18,120 nt of DNA from a virus, in IMG/VR virus record IMGVR_UViG_3300045988_002049, one strand, 5' to 3'. The number at the start of each line of letters is the position of its first letter. The stretch's first letter is position 1. The position numbers and the translations under genes are program-made. Under the pieces are notes generated by a model. That model was given only the letters and a program-made list of their open reading frames with translations. It had not been told where the DNA came from and did no database searches. This document shows, in pieces, positions 20-18,120 of the stretch.

Positions 20-282
20 AAAAGGAGGGGAGGGGCCCCAGCAGCTAGCCTTTTTCCACAACTGCTCTGTTGTGTATTTTGTCCTTGCTCTCTGCCCTGT
101 GTTTTTCATTGTCGCTCCTGTCCTGTCTTTGTTTATCTCCTTTGTTGTCTTCTATTTTACCTGCTTTTTTTTTGTTGTCAATTTCGCGTGTTGTTTTGCG
201 TGTATTTTTTTTGTGTGTGTTGGGTGTGTTGTTTTTGTGGTGTGGTATGATGTGAGTATTAGCCGATAAGGAAGGAAGTAAA
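20..282. repeat. Left inverted terminal repeat (263 bp)
   Basis: Reverse complement of 17839-18101. Identity follows from identical ORF translations in three frames (3..269, 5..250, 70..255 versus the mirrored ORFs) plus manual comparison of 261-282. The first mismatch is at 283 versus 17838. Confidence 0.95.
243..251 (+). promoter_or_regulatory. Extended -10-like box TGgTATGAT inside the left ITR, facing inward
   Basis: TGnTATGAT lies 34 nt upstream of ATG 285 and is followed by the SD GGAAGGAAG (270-278). No good -35 was found. Confidence 0.4.
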
Positions 283-284
283 GA

Positions 285-542
285 ATGATTAACCTTAACG
301 CTTATGTTATCGAACTTGAAGAGGACAATTGGTACGAAGTTTGCGTCGAAGGCGTGCTCAAGACTTCCGTTCGTGATAATGGTTGTTTTGATGATACTGT
401 TATTACGTTCGAGTCCGCCCTTGCGGCGGTTATCGAACTTTCTTTGAGCTACGATTATGATTACGTTGAAATCAAGCGGTGTTTGTCTAAGAAAGGTCGC
501 CCGTGCCGTAAGTATGTTGTCTCGGTCGACAACGGCGATTGA
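285..542 (+). CDS. Hypothetical small early protein (85 aa), the only plus-strand gene
   Basis: ATG lies 6 nt after an SD (GGAAGGAAG) contributed by the ITR. The ORF ends just before a bidirectional terminator. No recognisable motif. Confidence 0.7.
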   Translation: MINLNAYVIELEEDNWYEVCVEGVLKTSVRDNGCFDDTVITFESALAAVIELSLSYDYDYVEIKRCLSKKGRPCRKYVVSVDNGD

Positions 543-596: not shown

Positions 597-1484
597 CTAC
601 TGTTCATCTGTTACGGTGATTTTCAGACTGTCCAGCTTTGCTTTTACCGCGTCCTGCACGGTCTTGGCAATGGTGTCGGGGTTGGCTCCCATAGCTTCGG
701 ACAGTGCTTTGACAGCGGCCGTAAGCGCTGTCACTTGTGCGGTTAATGCTGGTAGCATGGTGTCGTGGATACGGATTACGTCGCTGGTTGCATCGCTTAT
801 AATATCGCGGGCGTATCTGCCGTTTGGAAGTTTGTGCATCCATTGTCCGCCGACAAGTCCGGTGTCGTGCATTCGGATTACGTCGCTGGTTGCATCGCTG
901 ATGATGTCGCGTGCTGCGCGTCCGTTTGGAAGTTTGTGTGTCCAGAATCTCATAATATCTTCGTCGGTCAATGCCATTTCGTCGTCTCCTTTTAGAATTT
1001 GATTCGCTTTGTTGATGACATAATTTATGTCGAGTCCGTTTGGCGCTAGGTCGGGACAGCCGTAATGGTCGGTGCCCGGCACTTCGCGGTGTAGCCATAT
1101 GTTACCGTTGAGTCCATCGTGCCATAGGTGCGTCCAACCGTACCGGCGCGCTATGTCGGCACAGAGTCGAGCGGAAGCGTTCATGCATGCTTGCGTACAA
1201 GGTATTCCGTTCATACCCCCTTCGTGTTCTATGCTGATTGTCGAATTGTTCGACGTGAAATTGGCGTCGCTGTAGCTGCCGTCGTTTTCGCTCACGTATT
1301 GATGGATTGCACCGTCCGCGCCGATACCATAGTGCGCACTTGCCTGCGAGTTGGCGTTCAAAAATACGCTATCCGTTCCGGCGAGATGGCCGACCATGAT
1401 ATGCAGCGTTATGTGTGTCACGGCGTATCCATTGCGTCCATTGTAATGGTTTGGCGAGCCTATCCATATGACGCCGTCCATCAT
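597..1484 (-). CDS. Endolysin: N-acetylmuramoyl-L-alanine amidase (Amidase_2/PGRP type) with a C-terminal tandem repeat and a coiled-coil tail
   Basis: Amidase_2-like motifs are present: SAHYGIG..G.I.QYV, STISIEHEG, and H...(11)..CP as in T7-lysozyme-type zinc amidases. The ATG overlaps the holin stop (ATGA). It is the last gene of the lysis cassette. Confidence 0.9.
   Translation of the reverse strand: MMDGVIWIGSPNHYNGRNGYAVTHITLHIMVGHLAGTDSVFLNANSQASAHYGIGADGAIHQYVSENDGSYSDANFTSNNSTISIEHEGGMNGIPCTQACMNASARLCADIARRYGWTHLWHDGLNGNIWLHREVPGTDHYGCPDLAPNGLDINYVINKANQILKGDDEMALTDEDIMRFWTHKLPNGRAARDIISDATSDVIRMHDTGLVGGQWMHKLPNGRYARDIISDATSDVIRIHDTMLPALTAQVTALTAAVKALSEAMGANPDTIAKTVQDAVKAKLDSLKITVTDEQ
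762..944 (-). repeat. Two tandem copies of a 34-aa (102-nt) unit inside the endolysin C-terminus
   Basis: WTHKLPNGRAARDIISDATSDVIRMHD versus WMHKLPNGRYARDIISDATSDVIRIHD. The DNA copies are visibly similar (about 775-850 versus about 877-950). Confidence 0.9.
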
Positions 1485-4284: not shown

Positions 4285-4315
4285 TATACCCCACGGCGCG
4301 GAACCGTGGGGTATA
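4285..4315 (-). terminator. 12-bp perfect stem-loop (TATACCCCACGG / CCGTGGGGTATA), a possible terminator or processing signal
   Basis: Perfect inverted repeat with a 7-nt loop, followed on the minus strand by CUAUUAUC. It overlaps a -10-like TATACT (4283-4288). Confidence 0.4.
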
Positions 4316-4407
4316 TGTTATGGGCTATGCCTCACGCCCTAATGTAATGGTGCGCCGTCCATATCCCAATACCGGCCTTGAGTCTATCTAATCCAATCGT
4401 CAAAAGT

Positions 4408-4442
4408 AATAGCCATGCCACCATTATAGCGGCATGGCTATT
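4408..4442 (-). terminator. Intrinsic-terminator-like hairpin after the fibre gene
   Basis: AATAGCCATGCC-11 nt loop-GGCATGGCTATT, followed on the minus strand by ACUUUUG. It starts 13 nt after stop 4455. The loop contains TATAAT. Confidence 0.55.
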
Positions 4443-4454
4443 GTTGATAGACTG

Positions 4455-5483
4455 TCATTTGGAGATACGGAACACGCTCAACACAGCATAGTTGATAGTG
4501 CCGGAGATTTCCTTAGTTGTGTCGTTCGACCTGATTTTCAACGCAACCTTGTCCCCCGACGTCAACTTGTAGGGACGGCACGGAAACGCCGCGTACTGTG
4601 CGCCACGAATCGCGCCGTTTGCTCCTACCACCATTGATGCCGGAGCCGTCGCCACAATAGAGTTGTTTACGTAGACGAGCAATTCGACACCTCGATACGA
4701 GTCATCGTCCGTAAAGGTTATCGACCCGACACGCATGTCCGACGAAACAAGATAAACGCCATCTTTTGAGACGGTCATGCTTTTGCGGTCGGTGGATAAG
4801 GTGATTACACCGTCTTCATCATCAAATGACGTGGTGGTGTCATGTTCGTCGAACGTGATTGTCTTCGGTGTCGAAGCGTTCGCGGCGACGGTAAACTGCA
4901 TGTTGTTGGCCTTCGCCACCGCAACGTTTGCGTGCTTCAAAAACGTGCTATTGACATACTGCTTCGTCGCGTAATCCGTCTTAATTCCAGCAATATCCGT
5001 AGCGTGGCCGTCTATCGTGTTTTTGAGGTCAGCGGCCTTAGCGGCCGTGTCGGCATCGAGGGCCGTTAATGCCGTCTTGTTTGCGGCGGCGTCCGAGCTT
5101 GCTTTATCCCATTTGACTTTAGACCGGGTTGCCTCTGACGTGCTATTCACGCCGAGGGCTGTTAGATTGGCATCAATCCCCGCAATGGCGCTGTCTGTTT
5201 GCGTGGCCTTGCTTTGCAGTGCGGCGATACTTGCATTGGTGGTGGTTTCGAAACTATCAAGGGCGGACTGTGCGCCGCTCGCCGCCTCTTTCGCTTCATC
5301 CGCCGCCGTCTTCGCGTTGTTCGCCGCTGCGGTCGCCGTGGTGATATTGGTGGCGTTGGCGTACATTTGATTGTCGATTTTCGTCATCGCGTCGGTGAAA
5401 TCGCCACGCCACGACGGCCGGTCATTCGGATTGTCGCCAAACGTCGGCAGATTGTAGTGTCCGGTATGCTGTGTGGTAGACAT
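4455..5483 (-). CDS. Tail fibre / receptor-binding protein (342 aa): N-terminal anchor motif, Ala-rich coiled coil, C-terminal beta-rich head
   Basis: SD AGAGGAGA lies 7 nt upstream. The N-terminus YNLPTFGDNPNDRPSWRGDFTDAMTKID is shared with the next gene. The central A/T/K/D-rich region shows heptad-like repeats. The C-terminus (GVYLVSS...ELLVYVNN...LTSGDKVAL) looks like a C1q/TNF-type jelly roll, which is an inference. Confidence 0.7.
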   Translation of the reverse strand: MSTTQHTGHYNLPTFGDNPNDRPSWRGDFTDAMTKIDNQMYANATNITTATAAANNAKTAADEAKEAASGAQSALDSFETTTNASIAALQSKATQTDSAIAGIDANLTALGVNSTSEATRSKVKWDKASSDAAANKTALTALDADTAAKAADLKNTIDGHATDIAGIKTDYATKQYVNSTFLKHANVAVAKANNMQFTVAANASTPKTITFDEHDTTTSFDDEDGVITLSTDRKSMTVSKDGVYLVSSDMRVGSITFTDDDSYRGVELLVYVNNSIVATAPASMVVGANGAIRGAQYAAFPCRPYKLTSGDKVALKIRSNDTTKEISGTINYAVLSVFRISK

Positions 5484-12871: not shown

Positions 12872-12891
12872 AATCACCTCTTAAGGTAGAT

Positions 12892-12919
12892 GGCACGGCA
12901 GCAATCACGCTGCCGTGCC
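12892..12919 (-). promoter_or_regulatory. Perfect 11-bp GC-rich stem-loop 15 nt upstream of the scaffold SD
   Basis: GGCACGGCAGC-aatcac-GCTGCCGTGCC. There is no U-tract on either strand. The flanking AGCAATC / GATTGCT can form an alternative pairing. Confidence 0.6.
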
Positions 12920-13056
12920 GGATTGCTAGGCTGTGCGGGTTCCCTCGCCGTCGATGGGCGTTGGCTACGCACGTCTACATCCGACCGAATCGCCTTACCG
13001 ATTGCCTACCGGTCGGGCCACTGAATCGGCTTAGGACGCACACCCCGCTACCGGTC

Positions 13057-13065
13057 ATTATAGCA
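13057..13065 (-). promoter_or_regulatory. Perfect extended -10 box TGCTATAAT overlapping the DNA polymerase stop codon; candidate late promoter or ncRNA promoter
   Basis: Minus strand reads gtg cta TAA tga, that is TGcTATAAT. It is followed by the 180-nt non-coding structured region and then the scaffold and capsid genes. Confidence 0.5.
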
Positions 13066-14518
13066 CAAAAAAACAGCCGTCATCGTTGACATGGCGTGAC
13101 CTCGGTAGAAAATCATCGTAGGGGATAGGGGCTGTCCGATGCACGCCACTCAACCGCATGACGGTATCGCCGTCTGTTTCCACGCCGCAGTATTTGCGAT
13201 TGCCGAGAATGCGAAGTTTTTTGTAGGTGTGGTCGTTTTTCCACGCGCCCAGTTTCTTGTCGTCCGTTTCGATGTTTGCGGGCGCATCCAGTCCGTCCAA
13301 TATCATGCCGTCTGTGTCGGCGTAGAGCACGCGGTCGGCGTTCGCGTTCATCGCGCGTGACAGTATTTGCCTCCCGTAGGCGTTGACGTATGCGGCGGTT
13401 GGCAGCCATGCGAGTGAGTTGATTGACTCAGGTTTGTCTACAGTAAAATCCACACCGCCATCACCGGAAGGCTTCGGGTGAAGCATAGGCCGATAAAGCG
13501 AGGCCCCGAATTTCCCTACCAGCGAGTTTAACAATAGTTTCGCCATTTGCCGACGTTCACCGGTTGCGGTTTGTTTCACGTGAAACCATTTGTCAACATA
13601 GTTGTAATAAAGTCCATGCGATTTACGGAATTTCCAGCCGCCGATATAATCCCACACATGGACGTCATAGTTTTCCGTCAAGGTTTGCCAATCCACGTCG
13701 GTCACGGGCATGGTGACGACGCCCAACGTACTATCCAGACGTTCGCCCTCATACCCCCATACTGGTAGGATATTAGTGAGCGTCGCCGTTTTTCCCGGTT
13801 TCAGCCGCGCATCGAACGCGATAACGTCGATGTGCAGCGGACAGTCCGCGTCATAATGATATTCTCCCTCATACCATAGGGGGGAGCCTATCGGCATGGC
13901 AAAGTCTCGCATGACGCTCGGATAGAGACTATTCACGTCCCAGCTGTTGCAATCCCGATATTCGCCCGGCCTGCTGTACACTATCGCTCCATAGTACGCG
14001 GGGCGCATCCTGTGATAATCCGCTTTATCCAATGGCGGGAAATGTCGTCTGAATCCGGCGTAATCTCCGCCGATATAGTCGTACATCGCCATAGATGCTA
14101 TGGTTGTGCCCTTGAGCCGCAGGGCGTCGCATTCCTGTGCGATGTTCCATGTGGTTTCCAAGTCATCCACGCCGCCAAATGTTTCGCGTGAGACATTCAA
14201 CCCATCATCGCGCGTGATGTTGCGCACATCTATAAAATCCACGGTGATACCGCCCATGCGCACCCGGAAACTGTAGAAATGGCCGCGAATGTTGAAAGTG
14301 CCCCAGACTCCATCCTTTGCTGGATTCGATTGCAATGGCAGTCGTTTCAATAGTTGAGCGGCTATAGGCTTGATGTCCTGCCATCCGTGAGCGCACCATA
14401 CGCGCGTATGATGGTCCAGCATGGTCAATCGAATGACGGCATTCGCCGTCAATGGCGCTATACCGTCGTCCGTTAATAGTGTTGCGCCATCTGTTGCCGC
14501 CGTTCGACGCTCTCGCAT
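13058..14518 (-). CDS. Protein-primed family-B DNA polymerase (phi29 gp2-like), unusually compact at 486 aa
   Basis: Motif A is WDVNSLYPS, motif B is KLLLNSLVGKFG, motif C is LYADTDG, and KxY is GNRKYCG. Several blocks are collinear with phi29 DNAP (RVWCAHGW, FRRHFPPL, WKFRKSHGLYYNYVDKW). SD is AAGGA. Confidence 0.95.
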   Translation of the reverse strand: MRERRTAATDGATLLTDDGIAPLTANAVIRLTMLDHHTRVWCAHGWQDIKPIAAQLLKRLPLQSNPAKDGVWGTFNIRGHFYSFRVRMGGITVDFIDVRNITRDDGLNVSRETFGGVDDLETTWNIAQECDALRLKGTTIASMAMYDYIGGDYAGFRRHFPPLDKADYHRMRPAYYGAIVYSRPGEYRDCNSWDVNSLYPSVMRDFAMPIGSPLWYEGEYHYDADCPLHIDVIAFDARLKPGKTATLTNILPVWGYEGERLDSTLGVVTMPVTDVDWQTLTENYDVHVWDYIGGWKFRKSHGLYYNYVDKWFHVKQTATGERRQMAKLLLNSLVGKFGASLYRPMLHPKPSGDGGVDFTVDKPESINSLAWLPTAAYVNAYGRQILSRAMNANADRVLYADTDGMILDGLDAPANIETDDKKLGAWKNDHTYKKLRILGNRKYCGVETDGDTVMRLSGVHRTAPIPYDDFLPRSRHVNDDGCFFVL

Positions 14519-14533
14519 AATTCCATCCTTTTT

Positions 14534-15478
14534 TTAGTGTCTTGCTGCGCTGGTTATCCATTCGTCAAGTCGTGTCCCTACATCTCCCGCGTCTGCTTTA
14601 GTCTCCCATTTATGCGCCTTATCATTATACCATGTTGCCTCGCGCACTACGGTGCTGAAATTCGTGTTGTTTATCAGCCATCGTTTCTGACGGTTCGACA
14701 AGGCGGCGAATCTTTGAGCCACGCTAAAGTCGAACGCTTCAAGCTGTTGCGCGACCTTATCAAAATCCGAAACACCCTCGTTCTCGGGAATACGCCTAGT
14801 TCCCGTGCGTAATGGCGCACGTCCTACAAGTCCGGCGTATTCAAGCATCTCCCGTTCAAGTTTCCTACGACTTCCCCCTCGCATCATCGCGCGTGCATGG
14901 CTTATACCACGCTCTGTGCCGAACACGTTCGCACGGCTTCGCATGAGTTCGTCACGTGCTGAGCCGCCGACCGTGTGTGTGCCTAACACGTCGTACGGAG
15001 ATTCCCCAGCGCGTTCCATTTCACGCATTTCACCCACGGTATAGCGGGCCATGCTCAGCGCCTCGAATTGTTTAGCACGCTTGATTTTCTCCCGTGCCTC
15101 GACTCGGCGGCGCTGCTGCTGCCGTAATGTTTTCCGACGTTTCGACGGAGCTGCGGCAATTTCCGCATCGCTTATTAGAGGGCGCGACGCCATTTCACGG
15201 TCAAGTTTCGTGACATGGACGTCGGGGACAACCTGATACGGTTCATTATCTCGCGCCCTTAAGGCTTGCTGTTGTTCTCCAAATTCCTGCCCGATACGTC
15301 GTGCTACCTGTTCAAGCTGTTGGGCACTGAGGTTTCCTAAAAACGTTTCAGTGATTCGTTTAGGGAGTCGTCCGGTACTGTAGTCTCTGACTGCCCGTTC
15401 TCGGCGTACCTGTGCCGACCTGATTGCGGCGTTGCGTTTCAGATTGTCAGCGCGTCGGCGGTTTTTGCGTTTTGCCAC
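14534..15478 (-). CDS. Terminal protein candidate (314 aa, strongly basic N-terminus)
   Basis: It lies directly upstream of the protein-primed polymerase, as in phi29 and Cp-1. The N-terminus AKRKNRRRADNLKRN and a second KRRKTLRQQQRRR block are basic. No sequence motif was recognised. The start is set at GTG 15478 (SD GGGGGA) because the 34 codons upstream (to ATG 15580) are occupied by two hairpins. Confidence 0.6.
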   Translation of the reverse strand: MAKRKNRRRADNLKRNAAIRSAQVRRERAVRDYSTGRLPKRITETFLGNLSAQQLEQVARRIGQEFGEQQQALRARDNEPYQVVPDVHVTKLDREMASRPLISDAEIAAAPSKRRKTLRQQQRRRVEAREKIKRAKQFEALSMARYTVGEMREMERAGESPYDVLGTHTVGGSARDELMRSRANVFGTERGISHARAMMRGGSRRKLEREMLEYAGLVGRAPLRTGTRRIPENEGVSDFDKVAQQLEAFDFSVAQRFAALSNRQKRWLINNTNFSTVVREATWYNDKAHKWETKADAGDVGTRLDEWITSAARH

Positions 15479-15500
15479 GGTTCCCCCTGTGAGTATGAAA

Positions 15501-15536
15501 CACCCCTCGCCGCAAGGATGGAAACGGCGGGGGGTG
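15501..15536 (-). promoter_or_regulatory. 12-bp GC-rich stem-loop in the region upstream of the terminal-protein gene
   Basis: Plus strand reads CACCCCTCGCCG-12 nt loop-CGGCGGGGGGTG, with one position that is not Watson-Crick (T opposite G). A second imperfect hairpin lies at 15545-15570. Confidence 0.55.
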
Positions 15537-15598
15537 AGTCTGGCGGCAACATCCCTATAGGGACATTGCCATAATATCATATGGTGCGGACAATCGTG

Positions 15599-16036
15599 TT
15601 ACTTGCGCTTGTTTTCCGACACCAGTTCGAGGTCGAAGAACTTGTAGCCACGGCGACTCTTTTTTTCCACTACCTTGAGGGCAAGTGGCTGATTCCACGT
15701 GTCCGGCGTCCCGAAAATGGCGAACAGATTGCCGAATGCGTGCGCCAGCGTGGGGGAGGCTGCGGCAAAGTCGCCTTCCTCCGCGTGGATAACGACGCGG
15801 GTGGACGAATTGATTTCACCAGTCTCTTGATTGGCGACTTCGATGGCCTGCGCCAGCACGTTGGTGACGTGCAGCGGCTCGTTAAGGTGTTCGTCCACTT
15901 TATCGGCGGTCTGCATGGCGTTGTACAGCGCCATCTTGCCGTCCATCGTGGAAGTATCAAAGAAGTGGGATACGGCGTTAGTGCCGTTCGCAGAAAAATT
16001 GTTGCCGTTCGCTACGGTTAGTTCGTTGTCAGCCAT
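15599..16036 (-). CDS. Hypothetical early protein (145 aa); single-stranded-DNA-binding candidate by position only
   Basis: SD AAAGG is present. It occupies the slot just upstream of the terminal-protein and polymerase genes, where phi29 encodes p5/p6. No motif recognised. Confidence 0.3.
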   Translation of the reverse strand: MADNELTVANGNNFSANGTNAVSHFFDTSTMDGKMALYNAMQTADKVDEHLNEPLHVTNVLAQAIEVANQETGEINSSTRVVIHAEEGDFAAASPTLAHAFGNLFAIFGTPDTWNQPLALKVVEKKSRRGYKFFDLELVSENKRK

Positions 16037-16062: not shown

Positions 16063-16377
16063 TTAATTATTTTCCTCGGTGATAATATCATCTTCGACTA
16101 CGTTGCCGTTAACCGGCCCCGGATAGTCAATAATGGTATCGTCTCCAAATTCGCAATTAGCCCAATAGATTGCTTCGTCCATGCGTGTTGCCTGCGCATG
16201 ATATTCGGCGGACATGGGTAGCATGTCCTTGTTGATTTTGCGGGCTTTTTTCATAGCCATGTCAGCTGTACGGCACGCGCCATTCACGACTACCTCAGTG
16301 TCAACGAGTTCGCCGTTTTCACCGCGCGTGATGCCGTGTACGATACTGTAATGCTTGGCTCTTTTGATGTATGCCAT
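16063..16377 (-). CDS. Hypothetical early protein (104 aa, acidic C-terminal tail); dsDNA-binding (p6-like) candidate by size and position only
   Basis: ATG 16377 has SD AAGGTGG 7 nt upstream; the track ATG 16383 is only 1 nt from that SD. The C-terminus is VEDDIITEENN. Confidence 0.3.
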   Translation of the reverse strand: MAYIKRAKHYSIVHGITRGENGELVDTEVVVNGACRTADMAMKKARKINKDMLPMSAEYHAQATRMDEAIYWANCEFGDDTIIDYPGPVNGNVVEDDIITEENN

Positions 16378-16400
16378 AGTCATGCCACCTTATCTTATTG

Positions 16401-16925
16401 TTACTGCTGTTGCGATATTCTTGCAATGTCTTCATCAGTATACCGCACGTCGGTGAGATTGTCAAAACATCGACACGCGATTTTGACAACGGTCTGGGCA
16501 AATTCGTTGCCATCCCAGACTTTGCACATTTCGTAACATGTCGCACCCTTGACATGACAGACGGCGCACCACGCCACCATTGCCGGTGCGTAAATGACGC
16601 CGCCCAGCATTTCAATATCCTGAGTTCGCGCCAACGCGCCGATACGCGACGTGTGAGGGGACAGTGATAAACAAACGTTTGCCGCATGTTCCACGCCGTC
16701 AGCGAACGCCACTTGCGACCCTTGAGGCTCGTAAAAGTCCTTGAGCAGTGTTATACTACGGCATAATGTTTCCCAATCGCCCTCGCCTCGATTGTATTCG
16801 CGCAAGTGCAGATTGCGGCGGCGTCCCCGAATGACACGGCGCACACGGTCGTCATCCAGCACGCCATCGTCAAACCAGTTTGTACGTTTTTCGCTTTTAT
16901 CAAAATTCAAATTCTTCAATTTCAT
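16401..16925 (-). CDS. Hypothetical early protein (174 aa) with a C-terminal cysteine cluster
   Basis: SD TTGGAG lies 8 nt upstream. The coding gene is tightly packed. A Cys cluster WCAVCHVKGATCYEMCKVWDG...ACRC is present. Confidence 0.6.
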   Translation of the reverse strand: MKLKNLNFDKSEKRTNWFDDGVLDDDRVRRVIRGRRRNLHLREYNRGEGDWETLCRSITLLKDFYEPQGSQVAFADGVEHAANVCLSLSPHTSRIGALARTQDIEMLGGVIYAPAMVAWCAVCHVKGATCYEMCKVWDGNEFAQTVVKIACRCFDNLTDVRYTDEDIARISQQQ

Positions 16926-17384: not shown

Positions 17385-17558
17385 TTATCCTTTCCACATC
17401 ACAGAAACGAAAACCAACACAGTGGACACGCTCACAGCAAGCATGACCAAAAAACAAAAAACGTCACGCGCATTACGAGGCAGTTCGCAAAACACCGTAG
17501 CCGCCATTATAAGAAACAGCACGGAAATGATACATACGGCAACAATCATACCACCCAT
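17385..17558 (-). CDS. Unannotated 57-aa two-transmembrane-helix protein (below the ORF-track size cutoff)
   Basis: Hand translation gives MGGMIVAVCIISVLFLIMAATVFCELPRNARDVFCFLVMLAVSVSTVLVFVSVMWKG. The ATG overlaps the upstream stop (TAATG), and an alternative ATG lies at 17549. The stop TAA lies 5 nt before the next gene's ATG. It fills an otherwise 100-nt gap in a tightly packed operon. Confidence 0.6.
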   Translation of the reverse strand: MGGMIVAVCIISVLFLIMAATVFCELPRNARDVFCFLVMLAVSVSTVLVFVSVMWKG

Positions 17559-17830
17559 TACAGCAACACCACCTTTACTACGCCGACCATAGTACTATCC
17601 ATGTCAAACGTAGCATTATCGATATTCACGTCCACATCAACACCGACGTACATATTCCTTACATAAGACAGCACGCCGTCTAATGAGGATTTCAGAGACG
17701 CCGTAAGAAACATGCCGCTAGGCTTCACGCAATCGGGCAGAATCTCGAACACCTGAAACCCATCGTCAGTGATAATGAAATGCCACACTTCAGACCTCCT
17801 CAACACGGCTAGAGCGGTAATAGTATTCAT
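17558..17830 (-). CDS. Hypothetical early protein (90 aa), first gene inward of the right ITR
   Basis: The ATG lies 12 nt after the ITR-borne SD GGAAGGAAG. No recognisable motif. Confidence 0.65.
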   Translation of the reverse strand: MNTITALAVLRRSEVWHFIITDDGFQVFEILPDCVKPSGMFLTASLKSSLDGVLSYVRNMYVGVDVDVNIDNATFDMDSTMVGVVKVVLL

Positions 17831-17838
17831 TTTTATTT

Positions 17839-18101
17839 TTTACTTCCTTCCTTATCGGCTAATACTCACATCATACCACACCACAAAAACAACACACCCA
17901 ACACACACAAAAAAAATACACGCAAAACAACACGCGAAATTGACAACAAAAAAAAAGCAGGTAAAATAGAAGACAACAAAGGAGATAAACAAAGACAGGA
18001 CAGGAGCGACAATGAAAAACACAGGGCAGAGAGCAAGGACAAAATACACAACAGAGCAGTTGTGGAAAAAGGCTAGCTGCTGGGGCCCCTCCCCTCCTTT
18101 T
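17839..18101. repeat. Right inverted terminal repeat (263 bp)
   Basis: Perfect reverse complement of 20-282. Confidence 0.95.
17870..17878 (-). promoter_or_regulatory. Mirror copy of the ITR extended -10-like box, facing inward (candidate early promoter of the minus-strand gene train)
   Basis: Same sequence as 243-251 because it lies in the ITR. It sits upstream of the SD GGAAGGAAG and ATG 17830. Confidence 0.4.
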
Positions 18102-18120
18102 AGATCGGAAGAGCACACGT
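18102..18120. other. Illumina TruSeq adapter read-through (AGATCGGAAGAGCACACGT); not biological sequence
   Basis: Canonical adapter-trimming string. The leading A is the A-tail added to the genomic 3' end. Confidence 0.95.

Follow-up and report, generated by a model that had tools for sequence, protein, structure and literature searches.

The linear phage genome held as IMG/VR record IMGVR_UViG_3300045988_002049 (18,120 nucleotides, hereafter the window) ends on either side in an inverted terminal repeat (ITR) whose runs of T are evenly spaced, which raises the question of whether this spacing is a signal read by a protein at the replication origins or has some other cause. The window is a complete phi29-like genome of 18.1 kb, and its two ITR copies, each with 263 nt of phage DNA, lie at 20-282 (plus strand) and 17839-18101 (minus strand) and are exact reverse complements of each other. 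The original prediction, made from the sequence alone, held that the T-tracts sit on a strict 13/26-bp lattice, which would serve as a built-in scaffold for a nucleoprotein filament analogous to that of protein p6 of phage phi29. We find that the lattice is real and sits at both origins. We suggest that an array of sites of about 26 bp, each seating a dimer, may nucleate a filament of a p6-like protein at both origins and over an early promoter predicted within the ITR; we would put the probability of this reading at roughly 0.45, slightly short of an even chance.

The eight runs of four or more T lie exactly where they had been placed (51-55, 77-80, 102-106, 155-158, 165-173, 194-197, 205-212 and 232-236), their centres all fall at 0.0-1.0 modulo 13, and the top strand is indeed poor in A (11 A, 105 T, 43 G and 31 C between positions 61 and 250). 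A Rayleigh scan of periods 5-40 gave its best value at 13.0 (R = 0.987), and a straight line fitted to the tract centres gave 12.97 bp per step with a residual standard deviation of 0.29 nt. Composition-matched shuffles, for which we took the maximum over all periods 5-40, rarely attained equal coherence: 3 of 20,000 mononucleotide shuffles (p = 1.5e-4) and 1 of 20,000 dinucleotide-preserving shuffles (p = 5e-5) matched the observed value, and none of 4,282 random tract placements reached it. The power spectra of TT and TTT have their maximum at 12.9-13.0, which 0 of 3,000 shuffles reach. When the genome was scanned in 895 overlapping 220-nt segments, both ITR copies (tied) ranked top for 13-bp periodicity and no 13-bp signal was found outside the ITRs; the density of T/A-tracts in the ITR segments is five times the genome mean. 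A genome-wide 13-bp code was rejected, the internal tracts showing just a weak 11-bp signal.

Written in a 26-nt register, the array runs from 46 to 253 on the plus strand as eight modules (rows starting at 46, 72, 98, 124, 150, 176, 202 and 228), with the right-end copy at 17868-18075 on the minus strand given by the identity of the ITRs. All eight rows have a T-run in columns 5-10, two of these being TTT or TTTGTTT, and additional tracts occur at the 13-nt half-step in rows 124-176. Some details of the predicted lattice need adjustment. A TTT run had been placed with its centre at 131; a T-run is found there, but it reads TTTGTTT, that is, two TTT runs at 129 and 133. As for the two periods, 13 bp is borne out, whereas 26 bp is looser than claimed (R = 0.50 for the eight tracts of at least four T). 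The description of the lattice as strict is true of this genome, but some of its relatives are far looser. Our literature searches found no published description of phased T-tract arrays in phage ITRs.

Over the whole ITR, the top strand has 118 T versus 35 A and 66 G versus 44 C. This asymmetry, as distinct from the periodicity, could be a by-product of mutation and of the single-stranded state: the 5' part is displaced first and stays single-stranded longest, which would expose it to C-to-T deamination, and a T/G-rich, A-poor strand cannot fold. Consistent with this, both single strands of the ITR fold very weakly (-13.5 and -12.8 kcal/mol for 263 nt), nucleotide skews peak in the outermost kilobase on either side, and the ITRs of Bifidobacterium phage BP1 and of the sister clade described below are likewise T-rich and A-poor. 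However, the genome-wide skew gradient expected from strand-displacement mutation bias is not seen, the bias is reversed in the ITR of Cp-1 (A>T, C>G), and mutation bias cannot generate a 13-bp phase. We regard this by-product as a very improbable source of the asymmetry, close to negligible. Since the folding z-scores are about 0, the near-absence of strand structure is itself an effect of composition.

Phased A-tract curved DNA, as found in the kinetoplast and upstream of promoters, resembles the array in having A/T homopolymer tracts repeated on one strand, but curvature calls for tracts that recur about every 10-10.5 bp. In the ITR they recur every 13 bp, with an R of 0.27 at 10.5 bp and an axis predicted to be straight with a right-handed twist; planar curvature was thus rejected. 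The prediction comes from a dinucleotide wedge model whose output is indicative only: the ratio of end-to-end distance to contour length is 0.975-0.983, straighter than 96-97% of shuffles, and in place of a planar bend the model yields torsion that is consistently positive and exceeds 99.8-100% of shuffles, describing a right-handed corkscrew. Right-handedness follows from simple geometry, given a period that exceeds the helical repeat. Naked ITR DNA is hence predicted to be a straight right-handed corkscrew with anisotropic bendability, of the same handedness as the p6 complex.

The same results bear on the idea that the tracts belong to promoter architecture alone, acting as UP-element-like or curved upstream DNA that boosts an extended -10 early promoter. 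This predicted promoter, read from the sequence as TGgTATGAT at 243-251 (plus strand; right copy at 17870-17878, minus strand), sits just downstream of the array and faces into genes on either end of the genome. Relative to its -10 at 246-251, the 194-197 and 205-212 tracts occupy about -40 to -60, which is the range of UP elements, the last lattice tracts (205-212 and 232-236) overlie its -35/UP region, and an internal promoter of BP1 has a similar T-rich upstream stretch. RNA polymerase, however, could touch no more than the proximal two or three tracts, whereas the array runs for about 200 bp to within 30 nt of the end, and a position in UP-element range cannot explain the six more distal lattice points. 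Moreover, the period is 13 and not 10-11 bp, the axis is modelled as straight, and the other promoter-like sites of the genome have no such array in front of them. We consider a role confined to the promoter improbable and give it little weight.

The relatives of the window show how the array evolves. From IMG/VR we obtained 115 close relatives, the polymerase being 86-95% identical among the 80 retained, and compared periodicity in the 35 clade ITRs that cover enough of the repeat; two sequences whose termini are not assembled, BD811P2 and the Logan contig L084, were left out of the lattice comparison. The best period is 12.8-13.1 in 23 of the 35, and some relatives are more periodic than the window (Z = 10.4 in L046, 10.5 in L054 and 9.9 in L070). 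A period of about 13 bp is therefore kept in much of the clade, but it does not extend to the sister clade (L102, L103 and L106; polymerase 57% identical), whose short ITR shows no periodicity, and the lattice was not found in the ITRs of BP1, BadAargau2, BadAztec1, Cp-1, Av-1 and Curtobacterium phage Prophecy. In the clade alignment, T-tract columns are retained at 86%, other T at 79% and non-T positions at 61%.

The clade ITRs are homologous end to end and differ in size (180-317 nt). GGAGGGG and the -10 box are 180, 203-206, 219, 230, 253, 278-280 or 301-304 nt apart, and the internal alignment gaps measure 25, 25, 25, 26, 26, 26, 28, 28, 62, 75 and 102 nt, the 62-nt gap being the sole one not near a multiple of 25-26; in L040 we observed a fresh 25-nt tandem duplication. 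Because the insertions and deletions are module-sized, the promoter-proximal tracts keep their register with the genome end over this whole range of ITR lengths. Indeed, their phase relative to the first terminal tract is mostly -1.5 to 0 nt modulo 13.

This pattern brings in the main rival explanation, namely that the array is a degenerate, minisatellite-like tandem repeat without phase-specific function, in which a unit of about 26 nt was amplified by slippage; the lattice would then be the memory of a decaying repeat, and T-richness or spacer length alone would matter. Tandem Repeats Finder reports a 24-nt repeat at 188-244 (2.3 copies, 78% matches), and our repeat search recovered two-copy families alone, with unit pairs at spacings of 24, 38 and 39 nt and 74-83% identity. 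The 26-nt register and the module-sized indels in relatives reveal a probable repeat ancestry of the array: confined to one shallow clade (polymerase at least 86% identical), not present in its sister and changing by module-sized steps, of which the duplication in L040 is a recent case, it is built like a degenerate tandem repeat whose units of about 26 nt come and go as wholes. Some clade members have also lost coherence. Yet the units are near-random outside the T-tracts while the tracts keep to the lattice to within 0.3 nt, the T-tract columns are the best conserved, the 13-nt half-step tracts fall on the lattice as well, and the register with the genome end survives about 10 separate indels; nor does repeat decay explain why an array of 180-317 nt is retained in an 18-kb genome. 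We regard repeat decay without function as unlikely, although it is a serious contender. If the array is just a decaying tandem repeat, it would be a clean case of module-sized ITR evolution, of limited interest.

The flanks of the tracts bear on another alternative. Five of the eight tracts of at least four T are preceded by GTGT or TGTG, and the array could consist of iteron-like sites for a different protein recognising a motif such as GTGT-N(0-2)-TTTT; candidates are the terminal protein/polymerase heterodimer, another early protein such as that encoded at 16401-16925 (174 aa), a phage repressor and an A/T-preferring host nucleoid protein. Like the iterons of plasmid and phage origins, the array is made of tandem direct repeats at an origin, varies in copy number and overlaps a promoter, and iterons could let the bound protein autoregulate the promoter that they overlap. 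Several early proteins match no family in profile searches, and the longer ITRs of relatives repeat an operator-like word, TAAGCGCGTAG. However, iterons are defined words of 17-22 bp spaced by integral helical turns, whereas here the tract is conserved, with a loose GTGT flank, rather than a defined word, and the 26-bp spacing amounts to 2.5 turns (1.24 for the half-step), so that neighbouring sites lie on opposite sides of the helix, an unusual arrangement for iterons of the classical type. Moreover, the candidate proteins have no recognisable sequence-specific DNA-binding domain. An iteron-like array seems to us rather improbable.

The TAAGCGCGTAG copies are an observation in their own right. 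Two or three of them, about 26-27 nt apart, are inserted between the T-tract array and the promoter in longer relative ITRs (L040 at ~182-230, L012 at ~208-230, L045, L052, L056, L037 and L041), where they resemble operators that a sequence-specific regulator would bind. In the window there is just a degenerate version, TTTCGCGTGTTG, at 182-193.

The comparison with phi29 on which the filament idea was built holds as to its facts: p6 occupies DNA with a dimer per 24 bp and a monomer per 12 bp, and recognises bendability and not a sequence (PMC10899789, PMC4974454). It has also been demonstrated that p6 makes minor-groove contacts in A/T-rich regions and wraps DNA as a right-handed superhelix with ~63 bp per turn, that its bendability pattern near the ends lies at positions 46-68 on the left and 62-125 on the right, and that it assists end unwinding at initiation and represses the C2 promoter near the end (PMC10899789, PMC4974454). 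The p6 of GA-1 binds every 11 bp (PMC10899789, PMC4974454), so the pitch varies between orthologues. At the phi29 ends we found the best WW (A/T dinucleotide) periodicity at 12.0-12.4 bp, non-significant (p 0.26-0.93), whereas by the same measure the ITR of the window exceeds all shuffles at 12.9 bp. By analogy, the array would spell out with unusual clarity a signal of the kind that is weak in phi29 at 12 bp.

The two systems share further traits. As in phi29, Nf, B103 and GA-1, the genome is linear and protein-primed, and the gene for a small protein of the abundant dsDNA-binding type (~104 aa in those phages) lies upstream of that for the protein that binds single-stranded DNA (SSB). As with phi29 p6, the period is slightly above one helical turn, with a dimer unit of 24 bp in phi29 and of about 26 bp proposed here; A/T tracts go together with a right-handed geometry, predicted in our case; and an end-proximal early promoter is overlapped (C2 in phi29, the predicted ITR promoter here). 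Nucleation in phi29 takes place within the first 50-125 bp of the ends. In contrast, phi29 has a 6-bp ITR and a subtle bendability signal, whereas here a 263-bp ITR carries an explicit lattice of homopolymeric T-tracts on one strand; the period is 13 bp and not 12 (phi29) or 11 (GA-1); the array is identical at both ends; and the candidate protein is related to p6 just remotely, at the level of fold. A closer parallel is offered by synthetic C24 concatemers of the 24-bp p6 unit, in which a head-to-tail, dimer-sized array gives a regular nucleocomplex (PMC10899789). Those concatemers are artificial, whereas the present array is natural and sequence-degenerate, with a copy number that varies between phages. 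Long ITRs of other phi29-like phages (Cp-1, 236 bp; BadAargau2, 227 bp; Av-1, Curtobacterium phages and BP1) are non-coding, carry early promoters and have a G- or C-run near the extreme end, as here, but none has a T-tract lattice.

Two early proteins of the window had been named as candidates for building the filament. The one encoded at 15599-16036 (minus strand) is a phi29-type SSB (PF17427, E 4.4e-15; phrog_6243) and not a duplex binder. The other, a 106-aa protein encoded at 16063-16383 (minus strand), fares better: fold match, gene order and a widened-profile alignment mark it as a p6-like candidate of the histone-like, double-stranded DNA (dsDNA)-binding type. Its open reading frame lies directly upstream of the SSB gene, the place that gene 6 occupies in Nf, GA-1, PumA2, Karezi and an Enterococcus phage; phi29 differs in having the small gene 5.5, and nothing else, between gene 6 and SSB. 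Built from a shallow alignment, the AlphaFold2 model of the protein has a mean confidence (pLDDT) of 79.6, and one built from a wider alignment reaches 86.4; in a Foldseek search of 350,542 PDB chains the best match for both was phi29 p6 (8pw4_A; probability 0.99/1.00, E 0.12/0.011, 79-81/83 residues, TM-score 0.55-0.57), the E-values being modest. Matches in BFVD include annotated p6/dsDNA-binding proteins of Bacillus phages Aurora, DLc1, VMY22 and SRT01hs.

At the level of sequence, we built a widened profile with remote homologues drawn from 1.8 billion representatives. In hhalign it aligned collinearly with a six-member p6 alignment (E 5.5e-4, probability 30%); the narrow profile gave a probability of 0.5% against the same alignment, the Pfam p6 model had no match even at E<=10 or across 22 family members, and the protein had no PHROG match. 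In the hhalign pairing, R7 of p6 (Arg6), which is essential for DNA binding (PMC4974454), pairs with R8, the sole invariant residue of the widened family; likewise, DG pairs with NG, G38 with G35, A45 with A43 and F77 with Y/W, and K3 and K11 have no partner. The C-terminus is acidic and modelled with low confidence, as in p6. With a fold and a gene order that agree with p6, and no match to its sequence family, the 106-aa protein is probably a remote p6 homologue. The p6 homologues that we saw are in phages of Firmicutes hosts (Bacillus, Enterococcus).

Taken together, a lattice that exceeds chance, is restricted to the ITRs, is kept in the clade with conserved tracts and holds its register through indels, in a genome that also has a p6-like gene, supports the reading of the array as a filament scaffold. 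The mechanism we propose is as follows. The non-coding ITR segment 46-253 would offer about eight 26-bp modules, each with a rigid T-tract of narrow minor groove and some with a second tract on the 13-bp half-step, the tracts being separated by flexible TG/GT-rich spacers. The 106-aa protein would nucleate on this pattern, placing a monomer on every 13 bp and a dimer on every 26-bp module, and polymerise inward, starting at about nt 30 on either side, into a nucleoprotein filament of right-handed form. By analogy with phi29, this filament may help to open the outermost 30 bp, which are G+C-rich, so that terminal protein and polymerase can prime initiation, and by covering the extended -10 promoter of the ITR it may shut off very early transcription. 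The array would have arisen, and would still be changing, through duplication and loss of whole modules, which would keep its register with the genome end. A bolder form of the proposal, which we find possible but doubtful, is that this clade of uncultured phages wrote the pitch of its filament into its DNA, with natural 26-bp dimer seats in variable copy number, corkscrew ends, a p6-fold filament of 13 bp per monomer, phase held by selection through indels of whole modules and twin promoters switched off by that filament.

Several observations weigh against the filament. Twelve of the 35 clade ITRs have another best period (e.g., L007, L011, L023 and L074), and several of those whose best period is about 13 bp are non-significant. 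The sister clade, whose p6-like protein is 60% identical, and distant Bifidobacterium phages are without the lattice; the lattice-free ITRs of the sister clade, BP1, BadAargau2 and BadAztec1 imply that the p6-like protein family does not require it. Replication slippage in any tandem repeat gives module-sized indels without selection on phase. No fixed multiple of 13 separates the array from the -10 box: a constant phase was rejected, since the values (141, 164-168, 181, 192, 214-215, 238-243 and 263-266) vary modulo 13. The p6 relationship is remote (no Pfam match, hhalign probability 30%, Foldseek E 0.01-0.1), and the geometry is no more than a model result.

If the filament hypothesis is true, it would matter in several respects. 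Because the signal in phi29 is a faint bendability pattern, the choice and activation of ends by p6-type proteins are hard to study; the present array would provide a readable natural substrate with sharp T-tract landmarks and natural variants in module number, on which stoichiometry, phase dependence and superhelical geometry could be tested. The range of the p6 fold would extend past phages of Firmicutes (Bacillus, Enterococcus) to phi29-like phages that infect Actinobacteria, and a third p6 pitch would be added to the series (11, 12 and 13 bp). Phased arrays could also help in the design of stronger artificial origins for protein-primed amplification.

The lattice is flanked by further elements of the ITR. 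Outward of it lies a G+C-rich terminal core, AAAAGGAGGGGAGGGGCCCCAGCAGCTAGCC (20-50, plus strand), conserved in all relatives that reach the end and presumed to be the minimal origin. The terminal A-run fits a sliding-back start, a role taken over from phi29 (PMC4974454). Just inside this A-run, a homopurine/homopyrimidine run of G/C is present as GGAGGGGAGGGGCCCC here (20-50), GCCCCCACCC in phi29 (L096, 1-20) and CTCCCCCACCCC in Cp-1 (L092, 1-25), and that of the window is on the opposite strand with respect to the other two. On the inner side, the promoter motif GTGTGGTATGATGT occurs without mismatch at the two ITRs only within the genome and is conserved in relatives; its promoter activity is a prediction. 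It is followed at the inner edge of the ITR by a shared ribosome-binding site, GGAAGGAAG (270-278, plus strand; right copy at 17843-17851), and then by ATG codons at 285 (plus strand) and 17830 (minus strand). The left one opens an 85-aa gene without family match, running inward from the left ITR promoter (285-542, plus strand); the right one opens a 90-aa gene running inward from the right ITR promoter (17558-17830, minus strand), the first of a long minus-strand operon. With promoter and ribosome-binding site both inside the ITR, one regulatory cassette would drive two unrelated first genes, one per end. The identity between the ends stops 1 base before the left start codon and 9 bases before the right one.

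Some other candidates within the ITR were considered. An outward-facing, near-consensus sigma-70-like site, TTGACA-16 nt-TAAAAT, is found at 154-181 (minus strand) and 17940-17967 (plus strand); as it is not conserved in relatives, it is probably a chance occurrence in A-rich DNA. An RNA gene for packaging RNA (pRNA) in the ITR was rejected, there being no Rfam match, as were ITR hairpins and cruciforms, given the lack of inverted repeats and the weak single-strand folding.

The physical ends of the genome can be read directly, as remnants of the Illumina TruSeq adapter, which is not phage DNA, occupy positions 1-19 (ACGTGTGCTCTTCCGATCT, plus strand), marking the left end, and 18102-18120 (minus strand) at the right end. 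The true genome ends are therefore 20 and 18101, and the exact inverted repeat of the assembled sequence spans 1-282 (282 nt) with the adapter included. Both true ends start with AAAAGGAGGGG, the left one being AAAAGGAGG at position 20, and the junction between adapter and AAAAGGAGG recurs in the independent contigs L012 and L070. TruSeq/Nextera adapter remnants were also assembled onto the contig ends of L012, L038, L059, L062, L070, L074 and L103. In the GenBank record of BP1 (L083, 1-~292), about 290 nt of unrelated sequence plus adapter precede the left ITR, and the BD811P2 record retains just 55 nt of ITR.

The genome is a phi29-type protein-primed replicon, Salasmaviridae-like. Nearly all genes are on the minus strand and transcribed from the right end, and among them are those for a phi29-type major capsid protein (PF25622), connector (PF05352), gp16 ATPase (PF05894) and SSB (PF17427), as well as an amidase. 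A protein-primed family B DNA polymerase is encoded at 13058-14518 (minus strand; PF03175, E 1.2e-31; phrog_1907, E 6.8e-53), and a putative terminal protein of 348 aa at 14534-15580 (minus strand) is assigned by position alone, between SSB and polymerase as in phi29, having no family match in profile searches. The polymerase has 486 aa versus 572 aa in phi29 (CDS 1145-2863); since the family models cover it from about residue 134 onward, its N-terminal exonuclease region is short or divergent. A DNA search of INPHARED gave no close nucleotide match among deposited phages. Judged by polymerase, the isolates closest to it are phi29-like phages of Bifidobacterium (~36% identity), and the host of this clade is probably Bifidobacterium.

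Finally, two non-coding gaps and one intergenic hairpin stand out by predicted structure. An Rfam search at E<=1 gave no pRNA match in the window. The gap at 12878-13057 (minus strand), between the polymerase and scaffold genes, opens with an extended -10-like TGCTATAAT, and its RNA (-88.6 kcal/mol, z = -4.0) is much better folded than shuffles, with two helices that compensatory changes preserve across this clade and its sister; it could be the packaging pRNA, or a leader or terminator of the late operon. The transcript of a second gap, at 4290-4460 (minus strand), folds at -64.5 kcal/mol (z = -4.3) and includes a perfect 16-bp hairpin. Between the convergent genes at 285-542 (plus strand) and 597-1484 (minus strand), a hairpin of the form CCCTAGG-N-CCTAGGG at 560-579, with T-runs on either side, is likely a bidirectional terminator, and a similar GGGGC/CCTAGG hairpin is present in BP1 and BD811P2.

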